Assembly (NCBI GenBank): GCA_937952245.1
Contig: CALFYS010000117.1
Coordinates: 25,544-89,543 of the forward strand
DNA from: an uncultured Alphaproteobacteria bacterium
GTDB lineage: Bacteria > Pseudomonadota > Alphaproteobacteria > Puniceispirillales > UBA1172
Direction: 5' to 3'
Length of the DNA stretch: 64,000 bases
Positions 34,936 through 63,451 of the stretch are shown piece after piece. The translations under genes and the position numbers were made by a program. How positions within the stretch are numbered: position 1 is the first letter of the stretch; each line of letters begins with the position of its first letter. The notes below the pieces were generated by a model that saw only the letters and a list, made by a program, of their open reading frames with translations, ran no database searches and had not been told where the DNA came from.

Positions 34936-34944
34936 GACGATTTC

Positions 34945-42716: not shown

Positions 42717-42766
42717 AACAGGCAGATTTAGGGGTGATTTAAAGCCTCTCTATCCACCAGATATTA

Positions 42767-43949: not shown

Positions 43950-43971
43950 GTTCAGGCAAAACAACACGATG

Positions 43972-43996
43972 GCAAGGCCCTTTTTGAGGGCCTTGC
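43972..43996 (+). other. intercistronic stem-loop after the binding-protein gene
   Basis: GCAAGGCCC-TTTTTGA-GGGCCTTGC forms a perfect 9-bp stem with a weak T tract. This is typical of mRNA-stabilising hairpins after ABC SBP genes. Confidence 0.5.
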
Positions 43997-44029
43997 TTCA
44001 TTTGGGGAAAAAGTTAAAGAAGAATTAAA

Positions 44030-46840: not shown

Positions 46841-47605
46841 TTAAAGCGTGACCTGTTCGGTGTGGCCATCAACCGCCATGGCCATGCCGCTGACATTTTT
46901 GGCGGCGGGGGAGGCCAGAAACAGCGCCATATCGGTGATGTCCGATGCGGTGACAAATCGTTTTAAGGAAACGCAATCAGCGTATCCTTGTCTTAATTCA
47001 TCTTCGGGGATTCCCCTTGCGGCGGCTTCTTTGGCAATAACGCGATCCATGCGATCGCCTTCTACCGCGCCGGGGCAAATCGCATTGGCGCGTATTCCAT
47101 AAGGCCCTAATTCCATGGCCAGTGTTTTCATCAAGCCGATAATCCCCCATTTCGCCGCGGCGTAAGGGGAACGGAAGGGATAACCGAAAAGCCCCGCGGT
47201 GGATGATGTTAAGGTCATGACACCGGATTTATTGGCCTTCATCCATGGGGCGGCAAGACTTGTGGCCAGAAACGCGCCATCAAGATTAACCGCAAGGCAA
47301 CGTTGCCAATCTGATAAGGCGACATCTTCAATGGCGGCGGTGGGGCCGGCGATACCGGCATTGGCCATCACCACATCCAATTGCGGCCATGCTGATTGCA
47401 GGCTTTTGAACACCTCGCGCATCGCGGCTTCATTGGCGGCATCCGCTTCAAATGTCATCAGGTCAGGATAAAGACCACGGGCGTGATCAAGGGCGGCGGG
47501 GTCCGTATCTGTCACCGCAACCGTGGCGCCATTGGCCAAGAAGCCGCGCGCCATATCAAGGCCAAGACCTGATCCACCAGCGGTGATAAAAACATATGGG
47601 CTCAT
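46841..47605 (-). CDS. short-chain dehydrogenase/reductase (SDR) family oxidoreductase
   Basis: TAGGSGLGL cofactor motif and catalytic YAAAKWG (YxxxK). AAGGAGAA lies upstream of ATG 47605. The longer ORF to 47689 overlaps the upstream gene. Confidence 0.85.
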   Translation of the reverse strand: MSPYVFITAGGSGLGLDMARGFLANGATVAVTDTDPAALDHARGLYPDLMTFEADAANEAAMREVFKSLQSAWPQLDVVMANAGIAGPTAAIEDVALSDWQRCLAVNLDGAFLATSLAAPWMKANKSGVMTLTSSTAGLFGYPFRSPYAAAKWGIIGLMKTLAMELGPYGIRANAICPGAVEGDRMDRVIAKEAAARGIPEDELRQGYADCVSLKRFVTASDITDMALFLASPAAKNVSGMAMAVDGHTEQVTL

Positions 47606-47615
47606 GTTATTCTCC

Positions 47616-48608
47616 TTAACGGCAATCGAGCAGGACAGACCCGCTTTTTTGAGCATCTTCCACCATTTCATGGGCGGCGGCGATGTCATCTAGAGGAAAG
47701 ACTTTGGCAATGTTTTCCGTGATCGCGCCATCTTCCAACAATTGGGTCAGCACCGCCAAGTCAGCGCGGCGGGTGTCATCATCCAGCAAATACACCAGCA
47801 GCATATGAAGGGCGATGTTCTTAAACATGAAATCATAAAACGGCATTTCAGGGGTTTTCTGAATGGCCGAGCCATAAGCGGCGATTGACCCACCTTCGGT
47901 CATAACCTTGGCCAGGGTGTTGATATTCGCGCCAAATTCAGCTTCCACCGCGTGATCAATCCCGCCGCAAGTATCCATAATATCATCGGCAAGGCTTGTG
48001 CTTTTATAATCCAACACCAGATCAGCCCCTGCTTTTTTCGCGGTCTCTTGGCTTAACGGTGAAGAGGCGGTGGTGATGATGGTCTTGGCCCCCATGGCGC
48101 GGGCGACTTCAATGCAATATCGGCCAACGCCGCCACCGCCGCTGGAGATCAAAACACGTTTGCCTTCGATGGTTTTGGCACGTGTCATGGTATGAACCGC
48201 GGTCATGGCGGGAATCCCCAAACAAGCGCCATGCATCATGCTGGCGGCATCGGGCAGGGGGCAGACCTGACGGGCGGGAATGGTGATGTATTCGGCGGCG
48301 GTGCCATGGGCGCGTTTAAAACCAGCGTTAAAAACAAAAACGCGATCCCCCGGGGCAAAGCCCTCAACACCTTCGCCGCATTGCTCAATTTCTCCGGCGC
48401 CATCGGAATGGGGGATCACGCGGTCAAAAGGCATGGTCATTCCCCCAAGGCTAAGCCCTGCTCGCATTTTGACATCGCTGGGGTTAATGCCCGAATAGTG
48501 CAATTTGATCAGCACTTCCCCCGCGGCAGGTTGCGGGATGGGCTGGTCGGAAATTTCCAAAACATCTTGGGCGGTGCCTTTGGCGCGGTAAGATGCGGTT
48601 TTCATCAT
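47616..48608 (-). CDS. NADPH:quinone reductase-like medium-chain dehydrogenase/reductase
   Basis: GINPSDVKMRAG and SSGGGGVGRYCIEVARAMGA motifs. 330 aa. Confidence 0.8.
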   Translation of the reverse strand: MMKTASYRAKGTAQDVLEISDQPIPQPAAGEVLIKLHYSGINPSDVKMRAGLSLGGMTMPFDRVIPHSDGAGEIEQCGEGVEGFAPGDRVFVFNAGFKRAHGTAAEYITIPARQVCPLPDAASMMHGACLGIPAMTAVHTMTRAKTIEGKRVLISSGGGGVGRYCIEVARAMGAKTIITTASSPLSQETAKKAGADLVLDYKSTSLADDIMDTCGGIDHAVEAEFGANINTLAKVMTEGGSIAAYGSAIQKTPEMPFYDFMFKNIALHMLLVYLLDDDTRRADLAVLTQLLEDGAITENIAKVFPLDDIAAAHEMVEDAQKSGSVLLDCR

Positions 48609-48760: not shown

Positions 48761-49741
48761 ATGGAAGAAGTTTTTTCACGGCGCAAAATTGTTAATGCGA
48801 CTGAACTTAAATATCTCAATGAACGGTCAGATGCTCGCGGCTGGGCGCAAATGCTAAGCCACCTTGGTCTGATCGCTGGCCTTGGCTATGCCCATTATTT
48901 GGTGATGGGGACATGGTGGGTATTGCTCACCGGATTTGGCCTTGGTGTGGCGTTGAATTTCCTTTATGCCGCCCAGCATGAATTATCCCATTGGACGGTT
49001 TTCAAAACCAAAGGATTGAATGAATTTTGGGGGCGGGTGATCGGTTTCTTCATGCTCTTCCCGCGTGATTTTGATCTGATCATGCATTATTCCCACCACC
49101 GCTTTACCCAAAACTGGGATAAGGATGGTGAGCTGGTGCGCGAACCTTACACATTGAAAACATTTTTATTGTGGATGATTGGCATCACCTATTGGCGGAA
49201 CCGCATTTGGGGGATTATCCGCCGCGCCAGAGGCGTGATTATTGAGCCGTATATCCATGCCAATGAAGAAGCCAAAGTGATCCGTGAATCACGTTTGCAT
49301 CTGTTGGGTTACGCGGCGATTGCAGGGGCTTCTGTTTATTTTCAGTCGTGGGCGGTGCTGTCGTTCTGGATTATCCCCTTGCTGGCAACAAAGCCTGTGC
49401 ATCAATTGCAGAACACGATTGAACATCTTGGCCTGTCCCATAATCATGACATTCTGAACAACACCCGTTCCACCCGCACGAATTTCTTCATGCGGTGGCT
49501 GTGTTGGCAGATGCCTTATCATACCGCCCATCACAGTTTCCCTTCCGTGCCGTTCTGGAAATTGCGGGAGCTCAACGACAAGATCGAAGGGGCTTGCGGT
49601 GAAGTGCATCGCATGGGTTGGATTGAATTCCAGATCGAAGCCATCAAACGCCTGATGGCGAAAGACGAAGATGGCTATCCGATGGATGAAGTCTGGATTG
49701 TGCCTGTCAAAGGTGGCCGCACGGTTCGGGTGGAAAGTTAA
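48761..49741 (+). CDS. membrane fatty acid desaturase family protein (di-iron oxygenase)
   Basis: Three His boxes (HELSHW, HYSHHRF, HTAHHSF) and hydrophobic N-terminal segments. ATG 48761 was chosen as the start. Confidence 0.75.
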   Translation: MEEVFSRRKIVNATELKYLNERSDARGWAQMLSHLGLIAGLGYAHYLVMGTWWVLLTGFGLGVALNFLYAAQHELSHWTVFKTKGLNEFWGRVIGFFMLFPRDFDLIMHYSHHRFTQNWDKDGELVREPYTLKTFLLWMIGITYWRNRIWGIIRRARGVIIEPYIHANEEAKVIRESRLHLLGYAAIAGASVYFQSWAVLSFWIIPLLATKPVHQLQNTIEHLGLSHNHDILNNTRSTRTNFFMRWLCWQMPYHTAHHSFPSVPFWKLRELNDKIEGACGEVHRMGWIEFQIEAIKRLMAKDEDGYPMDEVWIVPVKGGRTVRVES

Positions 49742-49743
49742 TC

Positions 49744-50583
49744 ATGGCACGGTCGCTCAAAGTTTACACCTCGCTTTGGGCGATGATGCCCCATGATCAA
49801 TCCGGCGTTGTTCTTTCTTATGAAGAGATTTGTGAGAAAGTCGCGGCGGCGGGTTATGATGGCATGGCGCTTGATCTGGGGGCAGGGGATATTGCCCAAG
49901 CCCGAGAAGTGCAGCCGATCATGGAGCGCTATGGCCTAACGCCGTTGATTGTCGCCTTTCCGAAAACTGTTGAAAGCATGCGCGAAGTCTTGGTGATGTC
50001 GAAAGATTTCGGCGCGCCATTTGTGGATGTTATCGGGCAAGTCATGCCGATTTCTGTTGATGGTATGATTCCTGTGATCAGACGCTGGATGGATATGGCC
50101 GAAGAGATTGGGATGCCGGTGCAATTTGAAACCCACCGCAATTGCATCACCAATGATTTATTCACCACTTTATCCCTGCTGGATGCGATTCCTGAAATGC
50201 GGCTTTGCGCGGACCTGTCGCATTATGTGGTGGACCGTGAGTTTAAATTGCCGCTTCAGCATCATGAACAGATGATGATTAGCCGTATTCTTGACCGCGC
50301 CGATAGTTTTCAAGGCCGGGTGGCCAGCCGCCAGCAGATTCAATTGCAATTGGATTTCCCTCAACATCAAAAATGGGTGGATTTATTCAAAGGCTGGTGG
50401 CGTGAAGGATTTGAACGTTGGCTTAGCCAAAATCAGGAGGGCGATTGCCTGTTCTTATGTGAGTTGGGCCCACCCGAATACGCCATGACGGATCACGCTG
50501 GTGTTGAAATGTCCAACCGTTGGGAAGAAGCCTTGGTGATCAAGTCTTGGGTCGAAGATATTTGGGCTGATTTGAACCCATAA
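49744..50583 (+). CDS. xylose isomerase-like TIM-barrel protein (sugar phosphate isomerase/epimerase family)
   Basis: About 279 aa with an alternating beta/alpha pattern and conserved E/H/D positions (FETHRN, DLSHY). Starts 3 nt after the desaturase stop. The call rests on general resemblance only. Confidence 0.45.
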   Translation: MARSLKVYTSLWAMMPHDQSGVVLSYEEICEKVAAAGYDGMALDLGAGDIAQAREVQPIMERYGLTPLIVAFPKTVESMREVLVMSKDFGAPFVDVIGQVMPISVDGMIPVIRRWMDMAEEIGMPVQFETHRNCITNDLFTTLSLLDAIPEMRLCADLSHYVVDREFKLPLQHHEQMMISRILDRADSFQGRVASRQQIQLQLDFPQHQKWVDLFKGWWREGFERWLSQNQEGDCLFLCELGPPEYAMTDHAGVEMSNRWEEALVIKSWVEDIWADLNP

Positions 50584-50685: not shown

Positions 50686-51684
50686 TTGCATACCGTTTTA
50701 ATGATTATCGCCAAGCGATTGCTGCTTGGATTGGTGACCATGTTTATGGTCTCCGTGTTGATCTTCTGCGCGGTGAATCTTCTGCCAGGTGATTTCGCTC
50801 AGGCTATTCTTGGACAAGGGGCCACGCCAGAGGCGGTTGAAGCGATCCGCCGTGACCTTGGACTTGATAAGCCGTTCATCCAACGCTACATGGGCTGGTT
50901 TGTTAACGCCATTCAAGGCGATTTCGGCACGAGTTTCGCGCAAGCCAATTTCAGTTCATACGGTGGGTCAACCGCCACTGAAAACTTTGGTTCTGTTGCC
51001 AGCCAATTGGCCCCTCGCTTTAAGAATACGATTTTCTTAGCGTCGGTGACGGCGGCGGTGGCTGTGCCTATCTCTCTGTTTATTGGGGTTTTGGCGGCGC
51101 TCTATCGCAATTCGATTTTTGATCGGGTGGCGAATATCACGACCTTGTCGTCGATTTCATCCCCTGAGTTTTTCTTGGCTTATATCTTGATTCTTGTCTT
51201 GGCGGTGTTGAACCCGATCCTGCCATCTTTGTCGAATATTTATGACGGGATGGAATTTGGGGAGCGGTTGCAGAAAACCATGCTGCCGGCGTTGACGCTG
51301 ACCTTGGTGGTGGCCGCGCATATGATGCGGATGACACGGGCGGCGATTATTAACCTCTTGGCTTCACCTTTTATTGAAATGGCACGGCTGAAAGGCTTAA
51401 GCCCGTTTCGGGTGATTCTCTTCCACGCTTTCCCCAACGCTCTGGCGCCGATTATTAACGTTGTCGCGTTGAACCTGGCGTTTTTGATCACCGGTGTTGT
51501 GGTGGTTGAAGTGGTGTTTGTGTACCCGGGCATTGGCCAGCTGTTTGTGGACAGCGTGAAGATCAGGGATATTCCGGTGGTGCAGGCCTGCTGTTTGGTT
51601 TTTGCCGCGGCGTATATTCTGTTGAACCTGACGGCGGATATTATGGCCATCATTTCAAACCCGCGTTTGCGGCATCCGAAATAG
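50686..51684 (+). CDS. ABC transporter permease (DppB/OppB type)
   Basis: The KRLLLGLVTMFMVSVLIF N-terminus and EAA-loop region (FIEMARLKGLSPFRVILFHAFPNALAPI) fit this family. The TTG start is preceded by a G7 Shine-Dalgarno-like run, with an alternative ATG at 50701. Confidence 0.85.
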   Translation: MHTVLMIIAKRLLLGLVTMFMVSVLIFCAVNLLPGDFAQAILGQGATPEAVEAIRRDLGLDKPFIQRYMGWFVNAIQGDFGTSFAQANFSSYGGSTATENFGSVASQLAPRFKNTIFLASVTAAVAVPISLFIGVLAALYRNSIFDRVANITTLSSISSPEFFLAYILILVLAVLNPILPSLSNIYDGMEFGERLQKTMLPALTLTLVVAAHMMRMTRAAIINLLASPFIEMARLKGLSPFRVILFHAFPNALAPIINVVALNLAFLITGVVVVEVVFVYPGIGQLFVDSVKIRDIPVVQACCLVFAAAYILLNLTADIMAIISNPRLRHPK

Positions 51685-51693
51685 GGGGCGGTC

Positions 51694-52929
51694 ATGGCAT
51701 TCACAACAATGATGATGATTTGGTTTGCTGGCGCGGTTGGTCTGACGATTGCCGCCAAAGCGCTCGCCCCTAAAGCCCCGACAGCGGAAATGCAAGAATG
51801 GTTGCGCGACGTCGGCTATGTCTCGTTCTTCGGTTATATCTTTATGATCACCATCGTGCTGTTGTCGGTGGATTATTATCTGGGCTATTGGTTTGGTGAA
51901 GAGATGCCCGCTTGGTTGCAGGCGATCTCGTTCTTTGGGCCACAGAAATTGCCGTTCTACGGATGGTTGATCAACGGCATTATTATGTTTGGTCTGGCGG
52001 GATGGGTCTTCCGTGTTCTCGGCCGGACAGTTGGCACAGAATGGTCAAAGAAAATGTTCCGCCAGATGCCGGTCACCGCGTCTTTCGGGATTTTAATAAT
52101 TATTCTTTATGCCATCATGTCGATCTTTGCTGATTTCATCGCGCCTTATGGACAGGCGGATGTGTTTGATAAAATTAACCTACTGCCGGGTGGTGATCCG
52201 GCTTTGGGCGGTGATCCCGCGCATTTGCTGGGCACGGATCAGATTGGCCGTGATTTGTTGAGCCGCTTGATTTACGGCGGGCAGAACACCGTTGGGATTG
52301 CCTTTGCCACCACCTGTTTGGCGTTCTTTATCGGCACGTCACTTGGGTTTTTGGCGGCGACTTTAGGCGGCTGGTTCGATCAGCTGTTGTCACGGATTGT
52401 CGATATGCTGATGGCGATCCCGCAGTTGATTTTCGCCCTGTTGCTGATGACCATCGCAACGGCTTGGGCAGGGTCTGAGCGCAGTTTGCTGACCATTTAT
52501 ATGGTGGTGATTATCGCGGTCTTGGATTCAACCCGTGTCTTCCGATTATCGCGAGCCGTGGGAATGAATATCGTGGTGATGGATTTCTTTGAAGCCGCAA
52601 AATTACGCGGTGAGAATCTGGTCTATCTGATCTTTAAAGAAATCTTACCAAATGCTTACGCCCCGCTTCTGGCGGAATTTGGATTGCGCTTCTGCTTTGT
52701 GTTCCTGACCATTGCATCCTTGTCTTTCTTGGGTGTCGGGATTCAGCCGCCATTGGCCGATTGGGGGACGATGGTGAAAGACCTGTCGCAGTTCATTAAC
52801 TTTGCGGCCTTTAGCCCTCTGACAGCGGCGTTACCATTGCTGGCGGCGGGGGCAATCGCGCTCCTGACCGTGGCGGTTAACTTTGTGGTGGACTGGATGT
52901 TGCACCGCTCATCAGGATTGAAGGAATAG
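51694..52929 (+). CDS. ABC transporter permease (DppC/OppC type) with a hydrophobic N-terminal extension of about 120 aa
   Basis: The canonical DppC core begins near FRQMPVTASFGILIIILYAIMSIFADFIAPY. An EAA-loop region (FFEAAKLRGENLVYLIFKEILPN) is present. 411 aa. Confidence 0.8.
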   Translation: MAFTTMMMIWFAGAVGLTIAAKALAPKAPTAEMQEWLRDVGYVSFFGYIFMITIVLLSVDYYLGYWFGEEMPAWLQAISFFGPQKLPFYGWLINGIIMFGLAGWVFRVLGRTVGTEWSKKMFRQMPVTASFGILIIILYAIMSIFADFIAPYGQADVFDKINLLPGGDPALGGDPAHLLGTDQIGRDLLSRLIYGGQNTVGIAFATTCLAFFIGTSLGFLAATLGGWFDQLLSRIVDMLMAIPQLIFALLLMTIATAWAGSERSLLTIYMVVIIAVLDSTRVFRLSRAVGMNIVVMDFFEAAKLRGENLVYLIFKEILPNAYAPLLAEFGLRFCFVFLTIASLSFLGVGIQPPLADWGTMVKDLSQFINFAAFSPLTAALPLLAAGAIALLTVAVNFVVDWMLHRSSGLKE

Positions 52930-52933
52930 GACA

Positions 52934-54595
52934 ATGTCAAAAAAAGAACCGCTTATCCGTATTCGCAATCTTGAGATCATCGGGATTACTGATGAAGTCA
53001 AAGTGCCGATCATCAATGGCGTTGATCTTGATCTCAATCGCGGTGAAGTTTTGGGCCTGATCGGTGAGTCCGGGGCTGGGAAATCCACCCTTGGTCTGGC
53101 CTCCATGGGCTATACCCGTGATGGGTGTCATATTACCGGTGGTGAGGTTGAATTTGATGGGATTGATTTGATCAATGCCAGCCCTGCTGTCAGAAGGCAG
53201 TTGTTGGGCAAGCGCATTGCCTATGTCGCGCAATCGGCGGCGGCATCATTTAACCCAGCCCATCGCATTATCCGGCAACATAGTGAAGCCCCCGGGGTGC
53301 ACGGCACTATGAGCCGTGGCGATTCCGAACAAGACGCGATTGATCTTTATGAAAAACTGCGTCTGCCGAACCCTGATGAAATTGGCTTCCGCTATCCGCA
53401 TCAAGTCTCTGGCGGGCAGTTGCAACGTGCCATGACGGCGATGGCCATGGCGTGCCGGCCGGATTTGATCATTTTTGATGAGCCGACCACGGCTTTGGAT
53501 GTGACCACACAAATTGAAGTGCTGGCCTCAATCCGCGAAATTGTTCAGCAGTTTAACACCGCCGCGATTTACATTACCCATGACCTTGCGGTGGTGGCGC
53601 AGATGGCGGACCGCATTAAAGTGTTGTTGCGCGGGGATGAAGTTGAAGAAGACACCACCGCCAAGATGCTGAAATCACCAAAGGAAGATTACACCAAATC
53701 CCTTTGGGCGGTGCGGAGTTTCAAGCGCGATCAAAAGCCAATGCCGAAAAAAGGTGATGTGCCTGTTGTCAGTCTGCAAAATGTCACCGCCGCTTATGGC
53801 AAAGTGCCTGTATTGAAAGACGTGTCTTTTGATATTCACCGTGAACGGACGGTTGCGGTTGTGGGTGAATCCGGTTCCGGTAAATCCACCGCCGCGCGTT
53901 GTATTACAGGCTTGTTACCGCCATTGTCTGGCCAAATCCTGAATAATGGGGAGCCTTTGCCCGCCCATTACCGAAGCCGCAATAAAGATCAATTGCGCCA
54001 AATTCAGATGATTTACCAAATGGCGGATACAGCCTTGAACCCACGGATGAAAGTGGGGGAGATTATCGGCCGGCCTGTTGAGTTTTATCTTGGCCTGACG
54101 GGCGATGATAAAAAGCGCAAAGTGAACCGCTTGTTTGAGCAGATTGAACTTGATCCAGCGGAATTTGCCAATCGTCTGCCGACTGAATTATCAGGCGGCC
54201 AGAAACAGCGGATCGGGATTGCCCGCGCGCTGGCGGCGGAACCTGAATTTATTATTTGCGATGAAGTCACCTCTGCCCTTGATCAGTTGGTGGCCGAAGG
54301 CATTCTGAAATTGCTGGCCAATCTCCAAGATGAGATGGGGCTGGCTTATATGTTCATTACCCATGATTTATCGACCGTGCGTGCCATTGCCGATGAAGTC
54401 GTGGTGATGAAAGACGGGGTGGTTATCGAACAAGGTCCGAAGGATAAAATGTTCACCCCACCACATCACGCTTACACCGATTTGTTGCTGAGTTCAGTGC
54501 CAGAAATGGATGAAAAATGGCTGGATCGGTTGTTGGCAGATCGTGGTGCTGAAAACCTTGGTGATGCGGCTGTCGGAAAGATGTCTGGCAATTGA
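52934..54595 (+). CDS. fused double ATP-binding protein of a Dpp/Opp-type ABC transporter
   Basis: Two Walker A motifs (GESGAGKST, GESGSGKST) and two signatures (VSGGQLQR, LSGGQKQR). 553 aa. Confidence 0.9.
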   Translation: MSKKEPLIRIRNLEIIGITDEVKVPIINGVDLDLNRGEVLGLIGESGAGKSTLGLASMGYTRDGCHITGGEVEFDGIDLINASPAVRRQLLGKRIAYVAQSAAASFNPAHRIIRQHSEAPGVHGTMSRGDSEQDAIDLYEKLRLPNPDEIGFRYPHQVSGGQLQRAMTAMAMACRPDLIIFDEPTTALDVTTQIEVLASIREIVQQFNTAAIYITHDLAVVAQMADRIKVLLRGDEVEEDTTAKMLKSPKEDYTKSLWAVRSFKRDQKPMPKKGDVPVVSLQNVTAAYGKVPVLKDVSFDIHRERTVAVVGESGSGKSTAARCITGLLPPLSGQILNNGEPLPAHYRSRNKDQLRQIQMIYQMADTALNPRMKVGEIIGRPVEFYLGLTGDDKKRKVNRLFEQIELDPAEFANRLPTELSGGQKQRIGIARALAAEPEFIICDEVTSALDQLVAEGILKLLANLQDEMGLAYMFITHDLSTVRAIADEVVVMKDGVVIEQGPKDKMFTPPHHAYTDLLLSSVPEMDEKWLDRLLADRGAENLGDAAVGKMSGN

Positions 54596-54685
54596 CGAAT
54601 GAAGGTTATCAAGACATAATATTTCGAGTTGGGTCATAACAATGAATAATAAGCCCTGTAATGCTTACATGATGGAGGAAAAAAC

Positions 54686-56233
54686 ATGAGCATTAATTTA
54701 AATAGACGTTCAGTATTGCAGACAGGTGCTGCGGCTGGTGTTCTTGCAGCAACCGGTATGCCTGCTGTTGCCGCGCCGAAACGTGGTGGTACGCTTCGAC
54801 TAGGTCTTAAAGGTGCGAATACATCTGACACTTGGGATGGTCGTACACACTCTGACAGTTTCATGATTAACATGGGGCATGGTTGTGTCTTTGAATGTTT
54901 GACCGAAGTTCAGTCAAACGGTGAATTGACAGGCGAATTGGCGGAAAGCTGGACGGCTTCTGCTGACGCGAAAGTCTGGACATTCAAACTGCGCAAAGGC
55001 GTTAAGTTCCACAATGGTAAAAGCTTTGGTGCTGATGATGTGATTGAATCACTCCAGATGCATACTGCTGAAGGCGCTAAGTCAGCGGCGAAGCCAATCG
55101 TTTCTGCCATCACTGATATGAAAAAGGTCAATAACCACGAAGTGCAACTGACCCTGAAGGCTGGTAACGCTGACTTCCCATATCTTCTGTCTGATTACCA
55201 TATCCAGATTTATCCTGCTGGCATGATCGATGAAGCGATCGCTAAAGGGATCGGTACTGGCCCTTATAAGGTTGTCAGCTTTGACCCAGGCGTACGTTGC
55301 GTTGTCACACGCGTTGATGATCACCATTTGGCTGATCGTGGCGGTTATTTTGACGGTATTGAAGCCATCGCGATTAACGATGATGCTGCCCGCACAAACG
55401 CCCTGATGACCGGTCAGGTTGATGCGATCAACAATATCGACAAAAAGACCATTCCGCTGGCGAAAGCCAACCCAATGGTCAGCATCGTTGAAGTGACTGG
55501 TAATATGCAATACACATTCCCAATGCTGACGAATGTTGAGCCATTTGGCGACGTTAATGTTCGTAAAGCGTTGAAATATGCTTGTGACCGTGACGAAATG
55601 GTGAAGAAGATTCTTCAAGGCCATGGTGCTGTTGGTAACGACAACCCCATTGGTCCTGCGAACCAGTATGTCAACACTGAAATGGAACAGCTGGCCTATG
55701 ATCCAGACAAGTCAAAGTTCTATTTGAAGAAGGCAGGTATGTCTTCATTGAACATTGATCTGTCTGCTTCTGACGGTGCTTTCAACGGTGCTGTTGATGC
55801 GGCGCAGTTGTACCAGAACTCAGCAAAAGCCGCTGGCATCAACATTAACGTTGTTCAGGAACCTGCCGATGGTTACTGGTCAAACGTTTGGTTGAAAAAG
55901 GGCTGGTGTGCATGTTACTGGTCAGGCCGTGCAACTGAAGATTGGATGTTCTCAACCGCTTATGAACGTGGTGTTCCATGGAACGACACCGGTTGGGATA
56001 ACGAACGCTTCCAGAATCTTCTTCTTGAAGCACGTGCTGAACTGGATTCAGGCAAGCGCCGTGAAATGTACGGTGAGATGCAGTCTCTTGTTTCACAAGA
56101 AGGTGCAACCATCATTCCAATGTTCGCCAATTACATTGACGCTCACTCAACAAAAGTAGCGCATAGTGGTGAAATTGGTAACCTTTGGATGCTTGATAAC
56201 TCACGTATCTGTAAGCGTTGGTGGATGGCCTAA
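54686..56233 (+). CDS. ABC transporter substrate-binding protein, family 5 (peptide/opine/nickel type)
   Basis: Tat-like signal (NRRSVLQTGAAAGVLAATGMPAVAAP) followed by GGTLRLGL, as in family 5 SBPs. 515 aa. Confidence 0.85.
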   Translation: MSINLNRRSVLQTGAAAGVLAATGMPAVAAPKRGGTLRLGLKGANTSDTWDGRTHSDSFMINMGHGCVFECLTEVQSNGELTGELAESWTASADAKVWTFKLRKGVKFHNGKSFGADDVIESLQMHTAEGAKSAAKPIVSAITDMKKVNNHEVQLTLKAGNADFPYLLSDYHIQIYPAGMIDEAIAKGIGTGPYKVVSFDPGVRCVVTRVDDHHLADRGGYFDGIEAIAINDDAARTNALMTGQVDAINNIDKKTIPLAKANPMVSIVEVTGNMQYTFPMLTNVEPFGDVNVRKALKYACDRDEMVKKILQGHGAVGNDNPIGPANQYVNTEMEQLAYDPDKSKFYLKKAGMSSLNIDLSASDGAFNGAVDAAQLYQNSAKAAGININVVQEPADGYWSNVWLKKGWCACYWSGRATEDWMFSTAYERGVPWNDTGWDNERFQNLLLEARAELDSGKRREMYGEMQSLVSQEGATIIPMFANYIDAHSTKVAHSGEIGNLWMLDNSRICKRWWMA

Positions 56234-56260
56234 TCCCTACGCTTTAAGGCAAGATATAGA

Positions 56261-56292
56261 GCATGGGCATCTTCGGATGCCCATGTTTTTTT
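56261..56292 (+). terminator. rho-independent terminator after the ABC operon
   Basis: CATGGGCATC-TTCG-GATGCCCATG is a perfect 10-bp stem with a TTCG loop, followed by TTTTTTT. Confidence 0.85.
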
Positions 56293-56324: not shown

Positions 56325-57878
56325 TTAATCCAAGAAAATCTGATGATGGTCTCTGATCCATTGGTCAGCGGTGCTGGACAAGTAATCCGGATGATGATTG
56401 CCCAGAATATCGCGGGCTTTCTCCCTTGCCTGCGCCCAAGCATCTTTCGCCCCAAGCAGTGCCCAAGTATCAGGGTCATTGCGATCAGCAATCTCAGGGT
56501 AATAATAATCCCGCACCATGGCGTTGATGGTGTTATCGCCACCCAAGAAATGCCCTTCGCCGTAAACCGCCTCTTTGATGGCATCAATATTCAAGGTTTC
56601 ATCATTGATCTCAACGCCTTTGATGGCGCGGTGGACATGGCTTAACATTTCATTATCCAAGACGAAGGCTTCAAAAGACGCGCCCAAAAGGCTGGCCATC
56701 ATGCCGGAGGATTCATAGACCATATTCGCCCCCGCCAGACCAGCGGATAAGGCGGCGAGTGCCTTTTCCATCCCCATCTGGGCATCCACCGCTTTGGCAT
56801 CAGCCATAGAGGAAGCCACGCCGCCGGGCAAATCAAAGTAATTGGCAATCTGGCCAGAGGCGGCATTCATCACCGAGATTTCACCACCGCCGCCACAAAA
56901 TGCCCCCGTGCGGAGGTCAATCACCAAAGGCCAGTTGGAAAAAATCATGGGGTAGCCCGGGGCAATAACATTGACCAACATTAAACCCGCCAGCGTTTCG
57001 GCGGTGGTTTGCGCCAACATTCCCGCCAAAGGCGCGGGCGATGTCGCGCCGGATTGGGCAGCGATAATTGAGTTAATCGGAACGCCATGTTCAACACAAG
57101 CATAGGTGACATCCACCGCGTCTTCCCCATAGCGCATCGGCGAGATGACCGGGCTGATATGGGCTTTGCAGAACGGTCTTTTGCGATATTCACCCTCGCC
57201 GCCTAGGGCTTGGTCAAACATCGCGATAATCGGGGCGACATTTTCAGCCACCGTAAAGCTGGTGCCGACGTGCTTTGTGGTGCCGCGCAATAACGCGTAA
57301 GCGGTGTTAATATCAAGGTCACGAATATCAGGAACGTCAGTGGCGACACAACAACGGGTGAACCAGCTGACGTTTTCAAGCGTATCAATCAGGCGGGTGA
57401 AATCATAAAGATCACGCAAGGTCGAAGGCCGATAGATGCCGCTGTCAATATCAAGCGTCTGAACCGCCGCCCCGCCTGTGCCGAAAAAGACACGATCACC
57501 GCCGATTTCAAGATCATGTTTCGGGTCACGGCCATGCAACACAAATTGCCGTGCCGCGCCATCAATTACATCTTCGACCATGGCACGCGAATAACACAGC
57601 CGTCCTTTGTCATTGAGATAAGCGCCTTTTGATAGGGCTAAATCTTGAAAGCGTTTTGGGACATCCCCCATGCCCAATTCGGCCAGAAGCTGAAAGGCGG
57701 TATCGGTGATTTTTTTCAGCCCAGCATCATCAAGGGGTTTATACGCCCCGCCTCTTTGCCCCGGCGGACAAGGGTTGGGCATCTCCCCCGGGGTGGTGCG
57801 CAATTGCACTCGGGCTGAGCGCCCGCCGCTTCGGGTGTTTCGGGGTTTTGATGGGCGTTTTTCGGGTGAAATGCTCAT
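56325..57878 (-). CDS. trimethylamine methyltransferase (MttB) family protein, non-pyrrolysine type, paralog 2
   Basis: 517 aa and clearly paralogous to 32012-33565. Shared segments are GGAYKPLDD, DINTAYALLRGTTKHVGTSF, GATSPAPLAG and NEMLSHVHRAIKGVEINDETL. No in-frame TAG. Confidence 0.8.
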   Translation of the reverse strand: MSISPEKRPSKPRNTRSGGRSARVQLRTTPGEMPNPCPPGQRGGAYKPLDDAGLKKITDTAFQLLAELGMGDVPKRFQDLALSKGAYLNDKGRLCYSRAMVEDVIDGAARQFVLHGRDPKHDLEIGGDRVFFGTGGAAVQTLDIDSGIYRPSTLRDLYDFTRLIDTLENVSWFTRCCVATDVPDIRDLDINTAYALLRGTTKHVGTSFTVAENVAPIIAMFDQALGGEGEYRKRPFCKAHISPVISPMRYGEDAVDVTYACVEHGVPINSIIAAQSGATSPAPLAGMLAQTTAETLAGLMLVNVIAPGYPMIFSNWPLVIDLRTGAFCGGGGEISVMNAASGQIANYFDLPGGVASSMADAKAVDAQMGMEKALAALSAGLAGANMVYESSGMMASLLGASFEAFVLDNEMLSHVHRAIKGVEINDETLNIDAIKEAVYGEGHFLGGDNTINAMVRDYYYPEIADRNDPDTWALLGAKDAWAQAREKARDILGNHHPDYLSSTADQWIRDHHQIFLD

Positions 57879-57978
57879 GGATTAACCTATTCGTCACTGC
57901 CCAAAAACTATGGCTTAGCATGAAGACTTTCGCAAGGTGGTCTATGAAAAAGATGCACGCTTTTAGGCGGGTGCGAAT

Positions 57979-59499
57979 TTAAGGAATAAAGGACGGTCCA
58001 TTGGCGCCGAGACGGACACCTTTGCGGAGATGTTGAAACGGCGTATCGGCCAAACGGCAGGGGGTTAATCCATTGGCGGCGGCGTTGATCACAAAGGGGG
58101 CAATCGGATCAAAATCCGCCCTGTAATGCACGGTGCTTTTCACCACGATGATCCCCGCCTGTGATGGGTCTTGCCCAAGATGGGTGAAAATCGCTTGATC
58201 AAGGCATTGGCACCGTTGGCTTGATATTGCAATTTTAATGTCATGGCCATGGGGTTTGATCAGCGCCGATAGACCCGCGTCCGCATGAAACCCGCGATAC
58301 ATTTCGCCGCTGAAGGCAAATTGCCCATCGCTTAAAGCAAGGATTTCAAACCGGTGATGCAAAGGCGGATCCCCATCAAAGGCTTTTCCGCCCAGTGATG
58401 TTTCGATGATGCCGCCAACACCAGAGTGATGCGCCATCTCCGCAACCTCAGGGTCATTCATCATGCCGAGGATGACGTTTTCGGCACCTGAGGCCATCAG
58501 CGCGTGGAGAATCCCTGTTGTGTCCGATGAGCTGCCCGCGCCGGCGTTGTCTTCAACATCGGCAATGATCACCGGCGTGTTGGTGGCGGCATGGCTTGAG
58601 ATGGCGCGGGATACAGCCTCTTCAGGCGTGAATAAATGGGATTGAAAGCCGCGTTCCGCATCCAAGAGCGATTGGAACATCGCGTCCGCCATGCTTTCGG
58701 CTTGATCACGGCTTGCGGCTTGCGCCAAGACAGCAGGGCCAGCATCCGCAATATCAGCGGCGGGGAAGCCTGTTGCCAATTCACACCATGATGCGGGGGC
58801 GTCATCATGTGTTGCCAAATCCTGATAAAGACTGACCATAGGTTCTGCCCCTGAAAATTGATCGGGAAGCGCGATTAGATAGGGCGATTGCCGCCACGCC
58901 AAATATCGTTTTTGTCCGGCCAGCAATGGTTTTAACGCTTCAAAAGCACGTCCGCCTGTTTGCGCCATATCAAGATGGGGATAAGACCGGAAAATCGTGA
59001 TGCTGGAGGCGTGATCAACCATGGCTTGTGTCAGATTGGCGTGGGAATCAAGGCTGATGCTGATGGGAAGATCATTACCGATAATCTGGCGGATGCGGCG
59101 GAGCAATTCGCCTTCGCCATCATCAAAATCTTCGGTCACCATCGCGCCATGCAGATCAAGGTAAATGCCATCAAGTTGAGGGGTGTTGGTGATGCCATCC
59201 GTGATGATCCCTGCAATTTTTTCATAGGCATGGCGGGTGACATGGGCGCTGGGTTCAGCCGCGCACCAAATGATGGGGATCAATTCAACTGATGGGTCTT
59301 GGCTGGCGGCGGCAACAAATCCGGCCAAGGGAAGGGTTGTGCCTTTCGTACCTTTCAGAACGTCTTGGCCAAGCAATAACCCGGGCCATGAATCCGCCAT
59401 GACAAAGTCATCAAACTCTGCTTTTGTCGCGCCGAATGTATTGGTTTCATGCTGGAATCCAGCAATCAGAATTTTCTTTGGTGGCGATGCTGATTTCAT
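57979..59499 (-). CDS. M81 family metallopeptidase (MlrC-like, microcystinase C family)
   Basis: N-terminal KILIAGFQHETNTF and DGIYLDLHGAM are typical of MlrC/DUF1485. 506 aa. Confidence 0.75.
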   Translation of the reverse strand: MKSASPPKKILIAGFQHETNTFGATKAEFDDFVMADSWPGLLLGQDVLKGTKGTTLPLAGFVAAASQDPSVELIPIIWCAAEPSAHVTRHAYEKIAGIITDGITNTPQLDGIYLDLHGAMVTEDFDDGEGELLRRIRQIIGNDLPISISLDSHANLTQAMVDHASSITIFRSYPHLDMAQTGGRAFEALKPLLAGQKRYLAWRQSPYLIALPDQFSGAEPMVSLYQDLATHDDAPASWCELATGFPAADIADAGPAVLAQAASRDQAESMADAMFQSLLDAERGFQSHLFTPEEAVSRAISSHAATNTPVIIADVEDNAGAGSSSDTTGILHALMASGAENVILGMMNDPEVAEMAHHSGVGGIIETSLGGKAFDGDPPLHHRFEILALSDGQFAFSGEMYRGFHADAGLSALIKPHGHDIKIAISSQRCQCLDQAIFTHLGQDPSQAGIIVVKSTVHYRADFDPIAPFVINAAANGLTPCRLADTPFQHLRKGVRLGANGPSFIP

Positions 59500-59585
59500 G
59501 TTTGTGATCCGTGATAACCTATGATTAATATGAAGGACGAAGAATAAAGCATCAACACAACATCATATTTTTTTGGGGATGAAAA

Positions 59586-62009
59586 ATGCGGAAACAAGCA
59601 CGAGTTGTTGTAATCGGTGGCGGTATCGCGGGGTGTTCAACGCTCTACCATTTGACCCAAGAAGGGTGGACTGATGTGATGTTGGTGGAACGTGATGAGC
59701 TGACCTCAGGGTCAACCTGGCACGCCGCGGCGCAAGTCACCCAATTTGGCGGTAATCAGACCTTTGTGGCGTTGAAGCGTCATTCCATCAATCTTTATCG
59801 TGAACTGGCGGCTGATCCTGAATTTCCGATTAATTATCACATCACGGGCGGGATGCGGCTGGGCTATACCGACCGGCAGATGGATATTTATAAGCATTAT
59901 ATCGCCATGGCCAAAGGTGTTGGGGTGGATTTTGAGCTGATTGACGGTGAAGAAGCCGCCCGCCGCCATCCGTTGATGAAAGGCCAAGGGATTAAATGCG
60001 CTTGGTGGGATCCATTGGATGGCGATATTGACCCCAGCCAGTTGACCCAAGCGCTTGCCCGCCGCGCCCGTCAAGCGGGGGCGGAAGTCTCCCGTTTTAA
60101 CCCGGTGGAAGCCTTGACCCAGAAACCCAATGGCGAATGGATTGTCCATACTAAAAACGGCGACATCACCGCTGAAATTATCGTCAACGCCACGGGTTAT
60201 CGCGTCAATGAAGTGGGCAGTATGATGGGGGTGGAACATCCGGTCATTTCAATGGAGCATATGTATTTCCTGACCGATCCGATTAAAGAATTGGAAGAGA
60301 TGGATGAGCGGGTGCCGATTATCCGTGACCCCGGGGATGATTTCTATTCACGGCAGGAAAAGAAAGGCCTGTTGGTGGGGGTTTATGAACAAGGCTGTAA
60401 GACATTTGGCATGGATGGCATCGACCCTGATTTCACCATGGCGCTTTGCCCGAATGATCTGGATCGCTGTCTTGATAACATGGAGCGGATTTTTGAACGC
60501 CTGCCGGCCTTGACGGAAACAGGTATTCACACCGTGGTCAATGGCCCGATCACCTATTCCGCTGATGGCATGCCATTGGTGGGACCCATCCCCGGGCTGA
60601 CCAACGCTTACGCTTGCCTTGGTTTGCGGGCAGGGATTGGTGAAGGCGGCGGTCATGGTAAGATTTTGGCGGAAACAATTGTCCATGGCGAAAGCGAATG
60701 GGACGCGTGGTTCCTTGACCCGCGCCGCTTTACCCAACACGCCAACACGCGCTTTACCATGCTGAAGTCGATCGAAGATTATCAGATGGAATTCCATTAC
60801 CATGAACCCCATGAATACAGGCCAGCAGGGCGGTTGGCGCGCACCACGCCGCTGTATCCGGTGTTAAAAGACATGGGGGCGGAGTTCGGTGTTGTGAACG
60901 GATGGGAACGCGCCCTGTGCTTCCCGCCTGAAGGGTTCCATGATGAGCCGGGCTACCGATTTAACGCTGATCGTGAAGCGGTGATTAAAGCCGAAGTTGA
61001 GGCGGTTGCCCATGGCGTTGGCTTGATGGAAGTGTCGGGCTTCAGCCGTTTCAAATTAACCGGAGACGGTGTTGTTGATGCCGTGGATGGTTTGATCGCT
61101 GGGCGGATGCCGAAAAATGGCAAGGTGAGTTTGAGCTATCTGTTGACCGAAAAAGGCAATATCTTGAGCGAAGCCACGCTCGCGCGGCTCAATGATCAAG
61201 AGATTTGGTATGGCGCGGCGGCGGCGGCGGAATGGCATGACCGCGATTGGTTGCAACACCATTTGCCGCAAGAGATTACCATCGAAAATATGTCTCAATC
61301 GCATACGGTGTTGGTGATCGCCGGGCCGAAATCCCGTGCTGTCTTGGAACAGGCCGCTGGCCATGAAGATTGGTCCAATGAAGGCTTCCCGATTATGGGG
61401 GTCAAACCTGTGGTCATTGGCCATGCTGAAGCCATGGCCATGCGGATCAGTTATTCCGGAGAGATGGCGTGGGAATTGCATATCCCTAATGAACAATTAT
61501 ACCTGATGTGGACGACATTAATGACCGCGGGGCAGGATTTTGGCATCAAGCCTTTTGGTCTTTATGCCACGGAATCGATGCGGCTTGAAAAAGGCTATCG
61601 CCATTGGAAGGCTGATTTGATGGTGGAATTTAACCCTGCTGAATCCGCCCTTGATCGTTTCTATAAAAGGGATAAGGAAAACTACCTCGGCAAAGAAGGT
61701 TTTGAAAAGCAACTCCAGCAAGGTTTGCGGAAACGGTTTGTCACCATGGTGGTTGACGCGGATCATGCCCCCGCCCATGCCGGTGACCCTATCCATCACC
61801 AAGGGCGACAAATTGGCAGTGTGACATCCGGCGGCTATGGCCATAGGGTAGGGGCGAATATCGCTTACGGATTTATTGAGCCTGACATTGCTGATGACGC
61901 TGAATTATCCATCGGGATTTTGGCCGAAGATTGCCCTGCTAAGATCACGGTGGAAGCGCTTTATGATCCGCTGAATAAAAAGGTTAAAGGTGATCCTCAA
62001 TCTGCTTAA
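59586..62009 (+). CDS. GcvT-fused FAD-dependent oxidoreductase (dimethylglycine/sarcosine dehydrogenase family), paralog 3
   Basis: VVVIGGGIAGCSTLYHL and TSGSTWHAAA motifs plus a C-terminal aminomethyltransferase domain. 807 aa. By eye it is closest to paralog 1. Confidence 0.85.
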   Translation: MRKQARVVVIGGGIAGCSTLYHLTQEGWTDVMLVERDELTSGSTWHAAAQVTQFGGNQTFVALKRHSINLYRELAADPEFPINYHITGGMRLGYTDRQMDIYKHYIAMAKGVGVDFELIDGEEAARRHPLMKGQGIKCAWWDPLDGDIDPSQLTQALARRARQAGAEVSRFNPVEALTQKPNGEWIVHTKNGDITAEIIVNATGYRVNEVGSMMGVEHPVISMEHMYFLTDPIKELEEMDERVPIIRDPGDDFYSRQEKKGLLVGVYEQGCKTFGMDGIDPDFTMALCPNDLDRCLDNMERIFERLPALTETGIHTVVNGPITYSADGMPLVGPIPGLTNAYACLGLRAGIGEGGGHGKILAETIVHGESEWDAWFLDPRRFTQHANTRFTMLKSIEDYQMEFHYHEPHEYRPAGRLARTTPLYPVLKDMGAEFGVVNGWERALCFPPEGFHDEPGYRFNADREAVIKAEVEAVAHGVGLMEVSGFSRFKLTGDGVVDAVDGLIAGRMPKNGKVSLSYLLTEKGNILSEATLARLNDQEIWYGAAAAAEWHDRDWLQHHLPQEITIENMSQSHTVLVIAGPKSRAVLEQAAGHEDWSNEGFPIMGVKPVVIGHAEAMAMRISYSGEMAWELHIPNEQLYLMWTTLMTAGQDFGIKPFGLYATESMRLEKGYRHWKADLMVEFNPAESALDRFYKRDKENYLGKEGFEKQLQQGLRKRFVTMVVDADHAPAHAGDPIHHQGRQIGSVTSGGYGHRVGANIAYGFIEPDIADDAELSIGILAEDCPAKITVEALYDPLNKKVKGDPQSA

Positions 62010-62079
62010 ACGGCCTTAATTGGGATTGGCTCAATGATGGGCGGCTGTTCAGGGGAGATTGAGGTTTCAGAATCAGAAA

Positions 62080-62787
62080 ATGGATTTGATTGATTTTTTT
62101 AATCTCGCCATCAATGCCATCATCAGTGGTGAGCATGACCTTTTTGAAGTGGTCAACCTTTCCCTTTACGTCAGTTGTTCGGCGGTGGTGATCGCCAGCC
62201 TGATCGGCGTGCCTTTGGGGGGGTATCTGGCAACCTCACGGTTCAAGGGGCGGTCTGCTGTTATTATTCTGGTCAACGCGTTGATGGGCTTGCCGCCGGT
62301 GGTGGTGGGGCTGATGATTTATTTGCTGCTGTCGCGTTCGGGCCCATTTGGTGTTTTTGGCCTGCTTTATACCCCCACGGCCATGATCATTGCCCAAGCG
62401 GTGTTGATCACGCCGATTATCACCGCTTTAACGCGCCAGACGGTTGAACATCTTTCCCGTGATTATGATCAGCAATTGCAGCTCTTTGGCATTTCCCCCA
62501 TGAAGCGGATGATGACATTGATTGTTGATGGCAGGTTTGAATTGGTGACCGCGGTGCTGGCTGGTCTGGGGCGCGCTATGGCTGAAGTGGGGGCGGTGAT
62601 GATTGTCGGCGGCAATATCGACCATTTCACCCGGGTGATGACCACCACCATCACGCTGGAGACATCGCGGGGGAATTTGGCCTTGGCCTTGGCCTTGGGG
62701 ATGATTTTGATCGTCATGACCATCTTGATTAACGCCGCCATGGCAGGGCTGCGCTGGTGGGGAGAAAAGCGATATGGCCATGGTTGA
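62080..62787 (+). CDS. ABC transporter permease, tungstate/anion (TupB-like) family
   Basis: About 235 aa with 5-6 TM segments. The GLGRAMAEVGAVMIVGGNI motif resembles TupB-type permeases. Confidence 0.6.
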   Translation: MDLIDFFNLAINAIISGEHDLFEVVNLSLYVSCSAVVIASLIGVPLGGYLATSRFKGRSAVIILVNALMGLPPVVVGLMIYLLLSRSGPFGVFGLLYTPTAMIIAQAVLITPIITALTRQTVEHLSRDYDQQLQLFGISPMKRMMTLIVDGRFELVTAVLAGLGRAMAEVGAVMIVGGNIDHFTRVMTTTITLETSRGNLALALALGMILIVMTILINAAMAGLRWWGEKRYGHG

Positions 62788-63451
62788 TCAACGTTATATC
62801 ACCGCGTCCCTTGAAGACGCTTCAGTGTCCATCGCCGGAAAACAGGTGCTGAAAAACATCAGCATGACGGTTGATCAGGCTGAAATTGTTGTGGTGCTGG
62901 GTGAAAATGGCGCGGGGAAAAGCTCTCTGCTTTCGGCCATGGCGGGGTTATTGCCGCTTGATCAAGGCAAACGCCGCTTAACCGAAGCCGATGGCCAAGA
63001 TGCCGCCATCACCCGCGTGGGGTATGTCTTGCAAAAGCCTGTTTTGTTCCGCCGCAGTATCGCGGGCAATATCGACTATGCCATGGACGCGGCGGGGATT
63101 GACCAAAGGCTTTGGCCTGAATATCGCCGTGATGTGCTGAACCTGATGAACATCACCCAAGATGAACGCCGTTCGGCCTTTCATCTTTCCCAAGGCGAGC
63201 GGCAACGGCTGGCCGTGGCGCGGGTATTGGCCATGAAGCCCGGGATTTTAATGTTGGATGAAGCCAGCAATTCGCTTGATAAAACCACGGTGTCTTTATT
63301 GGAAAGCCATGTCAGGCATCTGGCCGACCAAGGCATGCCGGTGATTTGGGTCACCCATAGCCTTGAACAAGCCCGCCGCATCGCCGACCGGATTATTACA
63401 ATTCATGACGGTGAGATTACCAAAGATTGTAGGGTTGAGGCGTTTTTTTGA
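62774..63451 (+). CDS. ABC transporter ATP-binding protein (TupC-like)
   Basis: Walker A GENGAGKSS, signature LSQGERQRL and Walker B ILMLDEA. Overlaps the permease gene by 14 nt. Confidence 0.75.
   Translation: MAMVDQRYITASLEDASVSIAGKQVLKNISMTVDQAEIVVVLGENGAGKSSLLSAMAGLLPLDQGKRRLTEADGQDAAITRVGYVLQKPVLFRRSIAGNIDYAMDAAGIDQRLWPEYRRDVLNLMNITQDERRSAFHLSQGERQRLAVARVLAMKPGILMLDEASNSLDKTTVSLLESHVRHLADQGMPVIWVTHSLEQARRIADRIITIHDGEITKDCRVEAFF

Follow-up and report, generated by a model that had tools for sequence, protein, structure and literature searches.

Aerobic marine bacteria demethylate glycine betaine by means of the pfam06253 methyltransferase MtgB, the corrinoid protein MtgC, and the methyl-tetrahydrofolate methyltransferase MtgD (Mausz et al. 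2025, PMC12478193). In SAR116 and other Alphaproteobacteria, as well as in Gamma- and Deltaproteobacteria, genes for the later demethylations often adjoin MtgBCD-type genes (PMC12478193). A marine genome can hold up to seven pfam06253 paralogs, of which only the glycine betaine enzyme has been assigned, and the orphan paralogs are expected to use other methylated compounds (PMC12478193; bioRxiv 10.64898/2025.12.19.695462). Deletions in P. inhibens identified mtgB1, alone of four paralogs, as the betaine enzyme (bioRxiv 10.64898/2025.12.19.695462). Peptidase family M81 has a single characterized enzyme, MlrC (PMC9982164). Here, we analyzed a locus in which these families meet: a second MttB (pfam06253) paralog, an M81 hydrolase, and a dimethylglycine dehydrogenase (DMGDH)-type gene lie together beside a Dpp-type importer. 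The locus is found in a 64,000-nucleotide stretch (hereafter, the window) of contig CALFYS010000117.1 (assembly GCA_937952245.1, positions 25,544 to 89,543) from an uncultured alphaproteobacterium of the Puniceispirillales (UBA1172).

The central genes and the spacer between two of them are as follows (FAD, flavin adenine dinucleotide).

56325-57878, minus strand: MttB2, 517 aa, predicted quaternary-amine:corrinoid methyltransferase (PF06253 MTTB, E 3e-104, profile positions 1-490 of 500)
57979-59499, minus strand: M81 (MlrC-like) zinc hydrolase, 506 aa (PF07364, M81, E 3e-83; PF07171, MlrC_C, E 2e-47)
59500-59585, intergenic: 86-nt divergent region between M81 and DMGDH3, presumed promoter region
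59586-62009, plus strand: DMGDH3, 807 aa, predicted FAD- and tetrahydrofolate-dependent N-methyl amine dehydrogenase of the DMGDH/SARDH family (DAO, FAO_M, GCV_T, and GCV_T_C domains)

All three genes are intact, and since they are long with full-length domain matches, they are not chance open reading frames (ORFs). Our ORF and domain searches agreed to the base with the coordinates, strands, and family calls of a first-pass annotation of the window. M81 lies upstream of MttB2 on the same strand, separated by 100 nt. The Dpp-type importer genes, on the plus strand, converge on MttB2; the first-pass annotation had an importer of this type adjoining the pair, and we found permeases, ATPase, and binding protein at 50686-56233. 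The window has a GC content of ~0.52.

We conclude that the locus is a lineage-restricted variant of a known demethylation system. The association of MttB with DMGDH is already published and is not new. The functional link that had been claimed for the two families is supported by the MtgBCD precedent (PMC12478193) and by divergent orthologous pairs in Anderseniella and two further genomes. As had also been claimed, MttB is paired with a GcvT-fused dehydrogenase twice in the window, here and in a DMGDH1-DMGDH2-MttB1 cluster at 27 to 33.6 kb. What the literature searched does not describe is that one M81 subgroup is repeatedly linked to MttB and DMGDH genes, with Dpp genes beside them. Full-text searches returned no link of M81/MlrC to betaine or methylamine demethylation, in keeping with the earlier remark that no pathway of this composition had been described.

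Five related metagenomic lineages have M81 next to MttB2, and the genes come in either of two orders. The related loci are given here with the identity of their M81 to that of the window.

L081: M81 97% identical, order M81 then MttB
L082: M81 69% identical, order M81 then MttB
L088/L089: M81 58% identical, order MttB then M81, 4-nt gap
L173: M81 61% identical, order MttB then M81, 4-nt gap

In a neighbor-joining tree, the M81 proteins of L081, L082, L088, and the window formed one clade; the tree leaves out L173, whose sequence was obtained after it was built. Given this monophyly and the two gene orders, the adjacency of M81 and MttB was kept through a rearrangement. The conserved block has the order Usp; TupC-TupB-DMGDH; M81, MttB; SBP-Dpp-TIM-FAdes; ADH-SDR (SBP, solute-binding protein; TIM, a TIM-barrel protein; FAdes, a fatty acid desaturase-family protein; ADH, alcohol dehydrogenase; SDR, short-chain dehydrogenase/reductase). 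Among named organisms, Alphaproteobacteria bacterium LSUCC0684 and metagenome-assembled genomes (MAGs) of Candidatus Puniceispirillales (SAR116) have the M81 and TIM proteins most closely related to those of the window. Near-identical proteins (93 to 100%) are numerous in TARA and ENA ocean assemblies. The host is thus probably a SAR116-like alphaproteobacterium that is abundant in the pelagic ocean.

To look beyond the lineage, we used an M81 profile to sample GTDB genomes, JGI metagenomes, and encoding contigs, and mapped 169 M81 loci; all counts refer to this sample among the matches listed and are not a census. Only the window lineage and two distant MAGs, L001 and L002, had both MttB and DMGDH near M81. 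The order in L001 is DppBCDF, S15 peptidase, M81 (55% identical to that of the window), DMGDH-like, MTTB, and TetR. L002 has an MTTB gene on the minus strand, followed on the plus strand by LysR, M81 (54%), MttB, and DMGDH, beside a TMADH/DgcA-like flavoprotein. The partner genes of L001 and L002 are non-orthologous to those of the window, because their products are merely 24 to 43% identical to the MttB paralogs and 38 to 40% identical to DMGDH1. Their M81 proteins form a clade separate from that of the window in the neighbor-joining tree. The trio of M81, MttB, and DMGDH thus appears, as judged from these sequences, to have recurred independently. The comparison set was the 78 sampled M81 loci with less than 54% identity and at least 4 kb on both sides. 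Both partners were found within 5 kb in none of these (0/78), MttB in one, DMGDH in none, and Dpp genes in 47.

Other arrangements were also seen in the sample. In L024, DMGDH and M81 occur with two choline-dehydrogenase-like (GMC oxidoreductase) genes. The DMGDH-like gene that follows M81 in L001, a long-read MAG, appears split into two overlapping ORFs (L001:11143-13681), which is probably an assembly frameshift and not a pseudogene. An alphaproteobacterial MAG (L015:3076-12554) combines M81 (46%) with a 2-oxoglutarate-Fe(II) oxygenase, a major facilitator superfamily transporter, an amidohydrolase, an MttB paralog, and DDAH/amidinotransferase-like and threonine-aldolase-like genes. This may be a catabolic cluster of the methylated-arginine type.

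We tentatively favor the reading that this is a composite SAR116-like catabolic locus for an N-methylated amine that can also arrive in amide- or peptide-linked form, and we put its chances at somewhat less than even. Import of an N-methylated, possibly amide- or peptide-linked compound would fall to the Dpp-type ABC system with its family-5 binding protein. The cytoplasmic M81 would cleave the amide bond; cleavage could precede demethylation, and then free a betaine-type or N-methyl amino acid, or follow it. From the quaternary amine, MttB2 would move one methyl group onto a corrinoid protein and from there to tetrahydrofolate, using MtgC/MtgD-type partners encoded outside the window. Genes of the mtgC and mtgD types are also unlinked in R. 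pomeroyi (PMC12478193), and so the partners may lie elsewhere in the genome. DMGDH3 would then take the next methyl oxidatively onto tetrahydrofolate. The sequence shows the gene families, the intact catalytic motifs, the arrangement, and its conservation; the metabolite flow, including the substrate and which of hydrolysis and demethylation comes first, is inferred. In such a scheme, MttB2 and DMGDH3 would be the old, self-sufficient core and M81 an accessory module that widens the substrate range. A bolder proposal is that a subset of M81 enzymes, in seawater and soil, is dedicated to N-methylated (betaine-capped or N-methyl-residue) peptide or amide metabolites and makes up, with an orphan MttB and a DMGDH-like enzyme, a new import-hydrolyze-demethylate pathway. 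We regard this as rather unlikely.

Several observations weigh against the composite reading. L174, a 124-kb contig, carries the full locus (MttB 77%, DMGDH 78%, Dpp 81 to 88%, and TIM and FAdes 82 to 83% identical to the window) with no M81 within 21 kb. Conversely, in a sister M81 clade (59 to 60%), made up of four metagenomic contigs and the LSUCC0684 genome, M81 occupies the same chromosomal site and converges with TIM-FAdes, and this short form is without MttB, DMGDH, Dpp, and TupBC there. L105 has an orthologous Dpp ATPase (70%) and, after it, an M81 of another clade (47%), which faces orthologous TIM-FAdes (76%) with no MttB between. The interval from Usp to TIM-FAdes therefore has at least five gene-content states, and because of these differing contents we consider it a variable spot, where co-location could be partly historical. 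In other alphaproteobacterial orders, Anderseniella (L090), L092, and L175 have an MttB2 ortholog (72 to 73%) divergent from a DMGDH3 ortholog (58 to 59%), with a LysR gene and without M81 or Dpp. These stand-alone pairs imply that MttB2 and DMGDH3 form a two-gene module that is old and self-sufficient. Among window ORFs of at least 150 aa, none had a B12-binding or pterin-binding domain. Finally, M81 evolves at 3 to 10 times the rate of its neighbors. In the unsaturated comparison with L081 (dS, ~0.08), the dN/dS ratio was 0.21 for M81, 0.07 for MttB2, 0.02 for DMGDH3, and 0.03 for TupB; by these values, M81, MttB2, and DMGDH3 are under purifying selection.

The first-pass annotation had put forward import, hydrolysis, and then demethylation of a conjugated substrate, with conservation of the neighborhood as a check. 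The scheme is plausible, and the comparisons support it in part. Adjacency was kept through the order swap, M81-MttB-DMGDH-Dpp was kept within the lineage, the trio is present in L001 and L002, and linkage of M81 to Dpp is usual. L174 without M81, and the sister clade with M81 only, leave this support incomplete.

The M81 protein itself is well supported as a member of its family, by its M81 and MlrC_C domains and by its fold. An AlphaFold2 model (predicted local distance difference test score [pLDDT], 91.6) matched 3IUU and MlrC (7YLQ) with template modeling (TM) scores of 0.80 to 0.84 and 24% identity, and these were its sole structural neighbors. Six MlrC residues that bind zinc or are otherwise essential (E39, D167, H169, H191, H133, and D332; PMC9982164) correspond to E18, D151, H153, H175, H117, and D317 of the window protein. 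Five of the six are invariant in a 37-sequence alignment, and H117 is kept in at least 90%. The catalytic motif begins at about residue 14, with no N-terminal extension or leader, and we therefore take the protein to be cytoplasmic. It is not an equivalog of the MlrC microcystinase (NF041767, 131 bits versus a cutoff of 999). The MlrC substrate residue E70 is not kept and aligns to K52 in a gapped loop, and homologs of mlrA, mlrB, and mlrD were absent from the window.

M81 is the most divergent gene of the block. Its identity to the window is 69% in L082 and 58% in L088, compared with 84 to 93% and 75 to 88%, respectively, for its neighbors. It is also the sole gene that changes position within the locus. 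As far as its substitution pattern can tell, M81 is functional, yet under markedly weaker constraint than its neighbors. The L174 locus without it, the sister clade that has it alone, and its fast divergence lead us to conclude that M81 is dispensable and mobile. It is probably an accessory amide hydrolase.

A rival explanation is that two or three unrelated modules have gathered in one variable chromosomal spot. M81 and Dpp, perhaps with TIM, FAdes, ADH, and SDR, would then serve generic peptide or amide use, while MttB2 and DMGDH3 would demethylate a free small betaine brought in by another transporter, and the two would have no common substrate. We hold this explanation to be only slightly less likely than the composite reading. 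Each module does occur alone, as M81 in the short form, as the rest of the locus in L174, and as MttB2 and DMGDH3 with LysR in the other orders. Adjacency to Dpp is usual for the M81 family, as the 47 of 78 sampled loci indicate, and both the five gene-content states at one syntenic site and the far faster divergence of M81 fit as well. The arrangement of the genes fits less easily. M81 is on the MttB2 strand, convergent to the Dpp unit and hence outside the Dpp operon, and the gap between MttB and M81 is just 4 nt in L088 and L173. In addition, the M81-MttB adjacency outlasted an order swap, and the operon-like tandem of M81, MttB, and DMGDH recurs with non-orthologous partners in L001 and L002, set against 0/78 in the comparison loci.

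The MttB2 ORF is uninterrupted over 517 aa with no in-frame stop, which makes MttB2 a non-pyrrolysine member of the family. The pyrrolysine (Pyl) trimethylamine methyltransferase MttB was rejected for this reason, there being no in-frame UAG, and by score (TIGR02369, 340 bits versus a cutoff of 525). Rfam PYLIS_3 passed its gathering score in both MttB paralogs, at 33074-33173 on the plus strand (53 bits) and 56708-56807 on the minus strand (40 bits). We discarded these matches as Pyl elements; they reflect coding-sequence homology, and neither gene has an in-frame UAG. MttB2 is equidistant from the MtgB structures 9yce and 2qne (E 4e-54) and Pyl-MttB 7xcl (E 5e-54). Its paralog MttB1 (45% identical) belongs to the first cluster.

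27029-29515, 29518-31992, and 31961-33565, plus strand: first cluster, DMGDH1, DMGDH2, and MttB1, probably a glycine betaine-to-glycine route

In Desulfitobacterium MtgB, glycine betaine is contacted by Y97, R312, H348, and F356 (PMC13080624). A phmmer alignment to 9yce placed G136, G353, E389, and L397 of MttB2 at these positions, and MttB1 bears the identical four substitutions, so the paralogs are not told apart by them. Judged by these residues, neither MttB1 nor MttB2 binds betaine in the Desulfitobacterium manner. Assignment of a characterized specificity to MttB2 was therefore rejected, given its equal distance from the MtgB and Pyl-MttB structures and the absence of the glycine betaine-binding motif from both paralogs. 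The substrate of MttB2 and the second cluster is probably not glycine betaine.

MttB2 orthologs are strongly conserved (68 to 73%) in Anderseniella, Coralliovum, Pelagibius, Denitrobaculum, and Rhizobiaceae. The best 120 MttB2 matches, all at least 67% identical, included no Rhodobacterales proteins. In Coralliovum pocilloporae (L091:11548-14766), the MttB2 ortholog (71%) is without DMGDH and lies beside a 1,072-aa Fer4/Fer2 protein, which might be a corrinoid reductive activase.

DMGDH3 is supported as a DMGDH/SARDH family member by its four domains and by STWHAA at residues 43 to 48, the histidine of which presumably carries covalent FAD. It matches rat and human DMGDH at E 1e-146. DMGDH1 and DMGDH3 are 43% identical, and DMGDH2 is 32 to 35% identical to either. 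Since DMGDH1 outscores DMGDH3 against mammalian DMGDH (541 versus 490 bits), we regard cluster 1 as the better glycine betaine candidate and cluster 2 as a candidate parallel route.

Another order of events is that hydrolysis comes last. Dpp would import an N-terminally methylated, dipeptide-like compound, MttB2 and DMGDH3 would demethylate it intact, and the M81 step could be replaced by general peptidases. L174, which retains Dpp, MttB, and DMGDH without M81, is what a replaceable final step would leave behind, and the relaxed constraint on M81 agrees with this. MttB2 is also without the carboxylate-binding Arg and His of MtgB (R312 to Gly and H348 to Glu), which is compatible with a substrate other than a simple carboxylate betaine; however, the same four substitutions in MttB1 mean that this does not set MttB2 apart. 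Moreover, DMGDH3 is close to true DMGDH (E 1e-146), from a family whose known members use free N-methyl amino acids as substrates, and orthologs of MttB2 (72%) and DMGDH3 (58%) occur without any Dpp system. We find this order improbable. A role for M81 in cofactor supply, trimming either a corrinoid amide (in remodeling or salvage for the B12-dependent MttB) or the folylpolyglutamate used by DMGDH, is very hard to credit: the circumstantial points that MttB needs a corrinoid, that DMGDH needs tetrahydrofolate, and that M81 recurs beside both families are outweighed by a short-form clade that keeps M81 without MttB or DMGDH nearby, by the placement of most sampled M81 genes in Dpp operons, by a window with no cobalamin riboswitch or cobalamin gene, and by literature searches that turned up no M81 activity of this kind.

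The following features lie on either side of the central trio.

48761-49741, plus strand: FAdes, FA_desaturase-family membrane di-iron oxygenase-like gene (PF00487, E 4e-35), heading the plus-strand unit that runs into the Dpp genes
49744-50583, plus strand: TIM, divergent xylose-isomerase-like TIM-barrel protein (PF01261, 28 bits, below cutoff)
50686-51684 and 51694-52929, plus strand: two Dpp/Opp-type ABC permeases (PF00528, PF19300, OppC_N)
52934-54595, plus strand: fused double ATPase of the Dpp-type importer (two ABC_tran stretches and oligo_HPY)
54686-56233, plus strand: periplasmic family-5 (cluster C) solute-binding protein (PF00496, E 3e-73), weak twin-arginine translocation signal
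56258-56289, no strand: hairpin with a 14-bp stem and T-runs, a likely bidirectional terminator where the binding-protein and MttB2 genes converge
62059-62787 and 62774-63451, plus strand: TupB-like permease (NF038017, 248 bits; the TupB model is below its cutoff) and ABC ATPase (ABC_tran)

All five components of a Dpp-type importer are present. The binding protein scored far below every NCBIfam equivalog cutoff (DppA, 85 bits versus 1,005; NikA, 138 versus 600). Its best match in the PDB was 8efz (E 1e-32), an unnamed family-5 protein. The remaining matches mix dipeptide, opine, nickel, and heme binders, and we rejected a ligand assignment from PDB similarity. The permeases are 87 to 93% identical to those of the window in L082 and 84 to 88% in L174.

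FAdes and TIM (48761-50583), which diverge from the zinc-dependent ADH and SDR genes (46841-48608), are a constant backbone by M81 in every arrangement seen, with the presence of FAdes judged on arrangements whose contigs extend far enough. The FAdes ORF is listed from a GTG at 48632. Its homologs are all 326 aa, and an in-frame ATG at 48761 is preceded by AAGGGA, so 48761 is probably the true start, giving a divergent spacer of 152 nt to the ADH gene. For TIM, a search of PDB sequences gave no match, and an AlphaFold2 model (pLDDT, 85.7) gave remote ketose-3-epimerase/UlaE-like fold matches only (TM, ~0.6), from which we did not assign a function. The genes for the TupB-like permease, of the oxyanion type, and the ATPase (62059-63451) start 49 nt after DMGDH3, without a binding-protein gene. 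Wherever this pair was seen (L081, L082, L088, L173, and L174), DMGDH3 and MttB2 were present too.

A search for terminator-like sites gave none between M81 and MttB2 and a strong one after MttB2. In a scan of the window for promoters and terminators, counts did not exceed those of shuffled sequences, and the hairpin at 56258-56289 alone was convincing. The spacer between M81 and DMGDH3 yielded no consensus promoter or conserved operator. Relatives share a conserved palindrome, CTTGCGCAAG, between FAdes and ADH, and the stretch between M81 and MttB2 contains a near-copy of it. As a shared operator it was rejected, since it occurs in the window at chance level (4 found versus 4.6 expected). An Rfam scan of the window found no cobalamin or other riboswitch, and cobalamin genes were absent from the window.

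The window as a whole is rich in genes for catabolism of N- and S-osmolytes. Upstream of the first cluster, positions 12215-18717 hold a set resembling a carnitine-to-glycine betaine route: BKACE, a 3-hydroxyacyl-CoA dehydrogenase/thioesterase fusion, an acyl-CoA dehydrogenase, an ADP-forming CoA ligase, and an enoyl-CoA hydratase. Positions 34024-46751 hold taurine/sulfoacetaldehyde/sulfite-like genes, namely, a DMSO-reductase-family Mo enzyme with FeS and DmsC-like subunits (SoeABC-like), Pta, a MocR-type regulator, a class III aminotransferase, and an NMT1-type ABC importer. The genes of this second interval are syntenic in LSUCC0684 and related contigs.

In a lineage that is abundant in the ocean, the locus ties one orphan MttB paralog to a hydrolase, a demethylase for the second step, and an importer that is defined. 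Were the dedicated M81 pathway true, it would give a function to an orphan M81 family and to one uncharacterized MttB paralog of abundant SAR116-type bacteria. If the link is real, methylated dissolved organic nitrogen gains a further sink that depends on B12; if it is not, the locus amounts to a known demethylation module, present in a second copy next to a peptide importer. The long-form loci, L174 without M81, and the cultured short-form strain LSUCC0684 are a natural comparison set for the substrate.

One of the closest described systems is MtgBCD of Ruegeria pomeroyi and Phaeobacter inhibens. As there, a non-Pyl pfam06253 methyltransferase adjoins FAD- and tetrahydrofolate-dependent DMGDH-type demethylases, with several paralogs, in marine Alphaproteobacteria. 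Unlike MtgBCD, the window locus is without an adjacent mtgC or mtgD, and it adds an M81 gene co-directional with the methyltransferase and an adjacent Dpp-type importer. MttB2 shares fold and family with MtgB, MtcB, MtpB, MtyB, and MthB of anaerobes (PMC13080624, PMC8604678, PMC12155760). It differs from these MttB-superfamily enzymes in that it is not specifically MtgB, has the four betaine contacts replaced, and comes from an aerobic host. With the mlr cluster (MlrA/B/C and MlrD), the locus has in common a two-domain M81 fold with identical zinc ligands and a gene beside a peptide-type transporter. The natural substrate of MlrC contains an N-methylated residue, N-methyldehydroalanine. In contrast to MlrC, the window M81 is only ~24% identical, has E70 replaced, is cytoplasmic without a leader, and has no mlr partners in the window. 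Lastly, like the M81 genes in Dpp/Opp-type operons of Bradyrhizobium, Ruegeria, Achromobacter, and others, the window M81 lies near a five-component family-5 ABC importer. What sets the M81s of the window, L001, and L002 apart from those Dpp-operon M81s (0/78) is that they are also tied to MttB and DMGDH.

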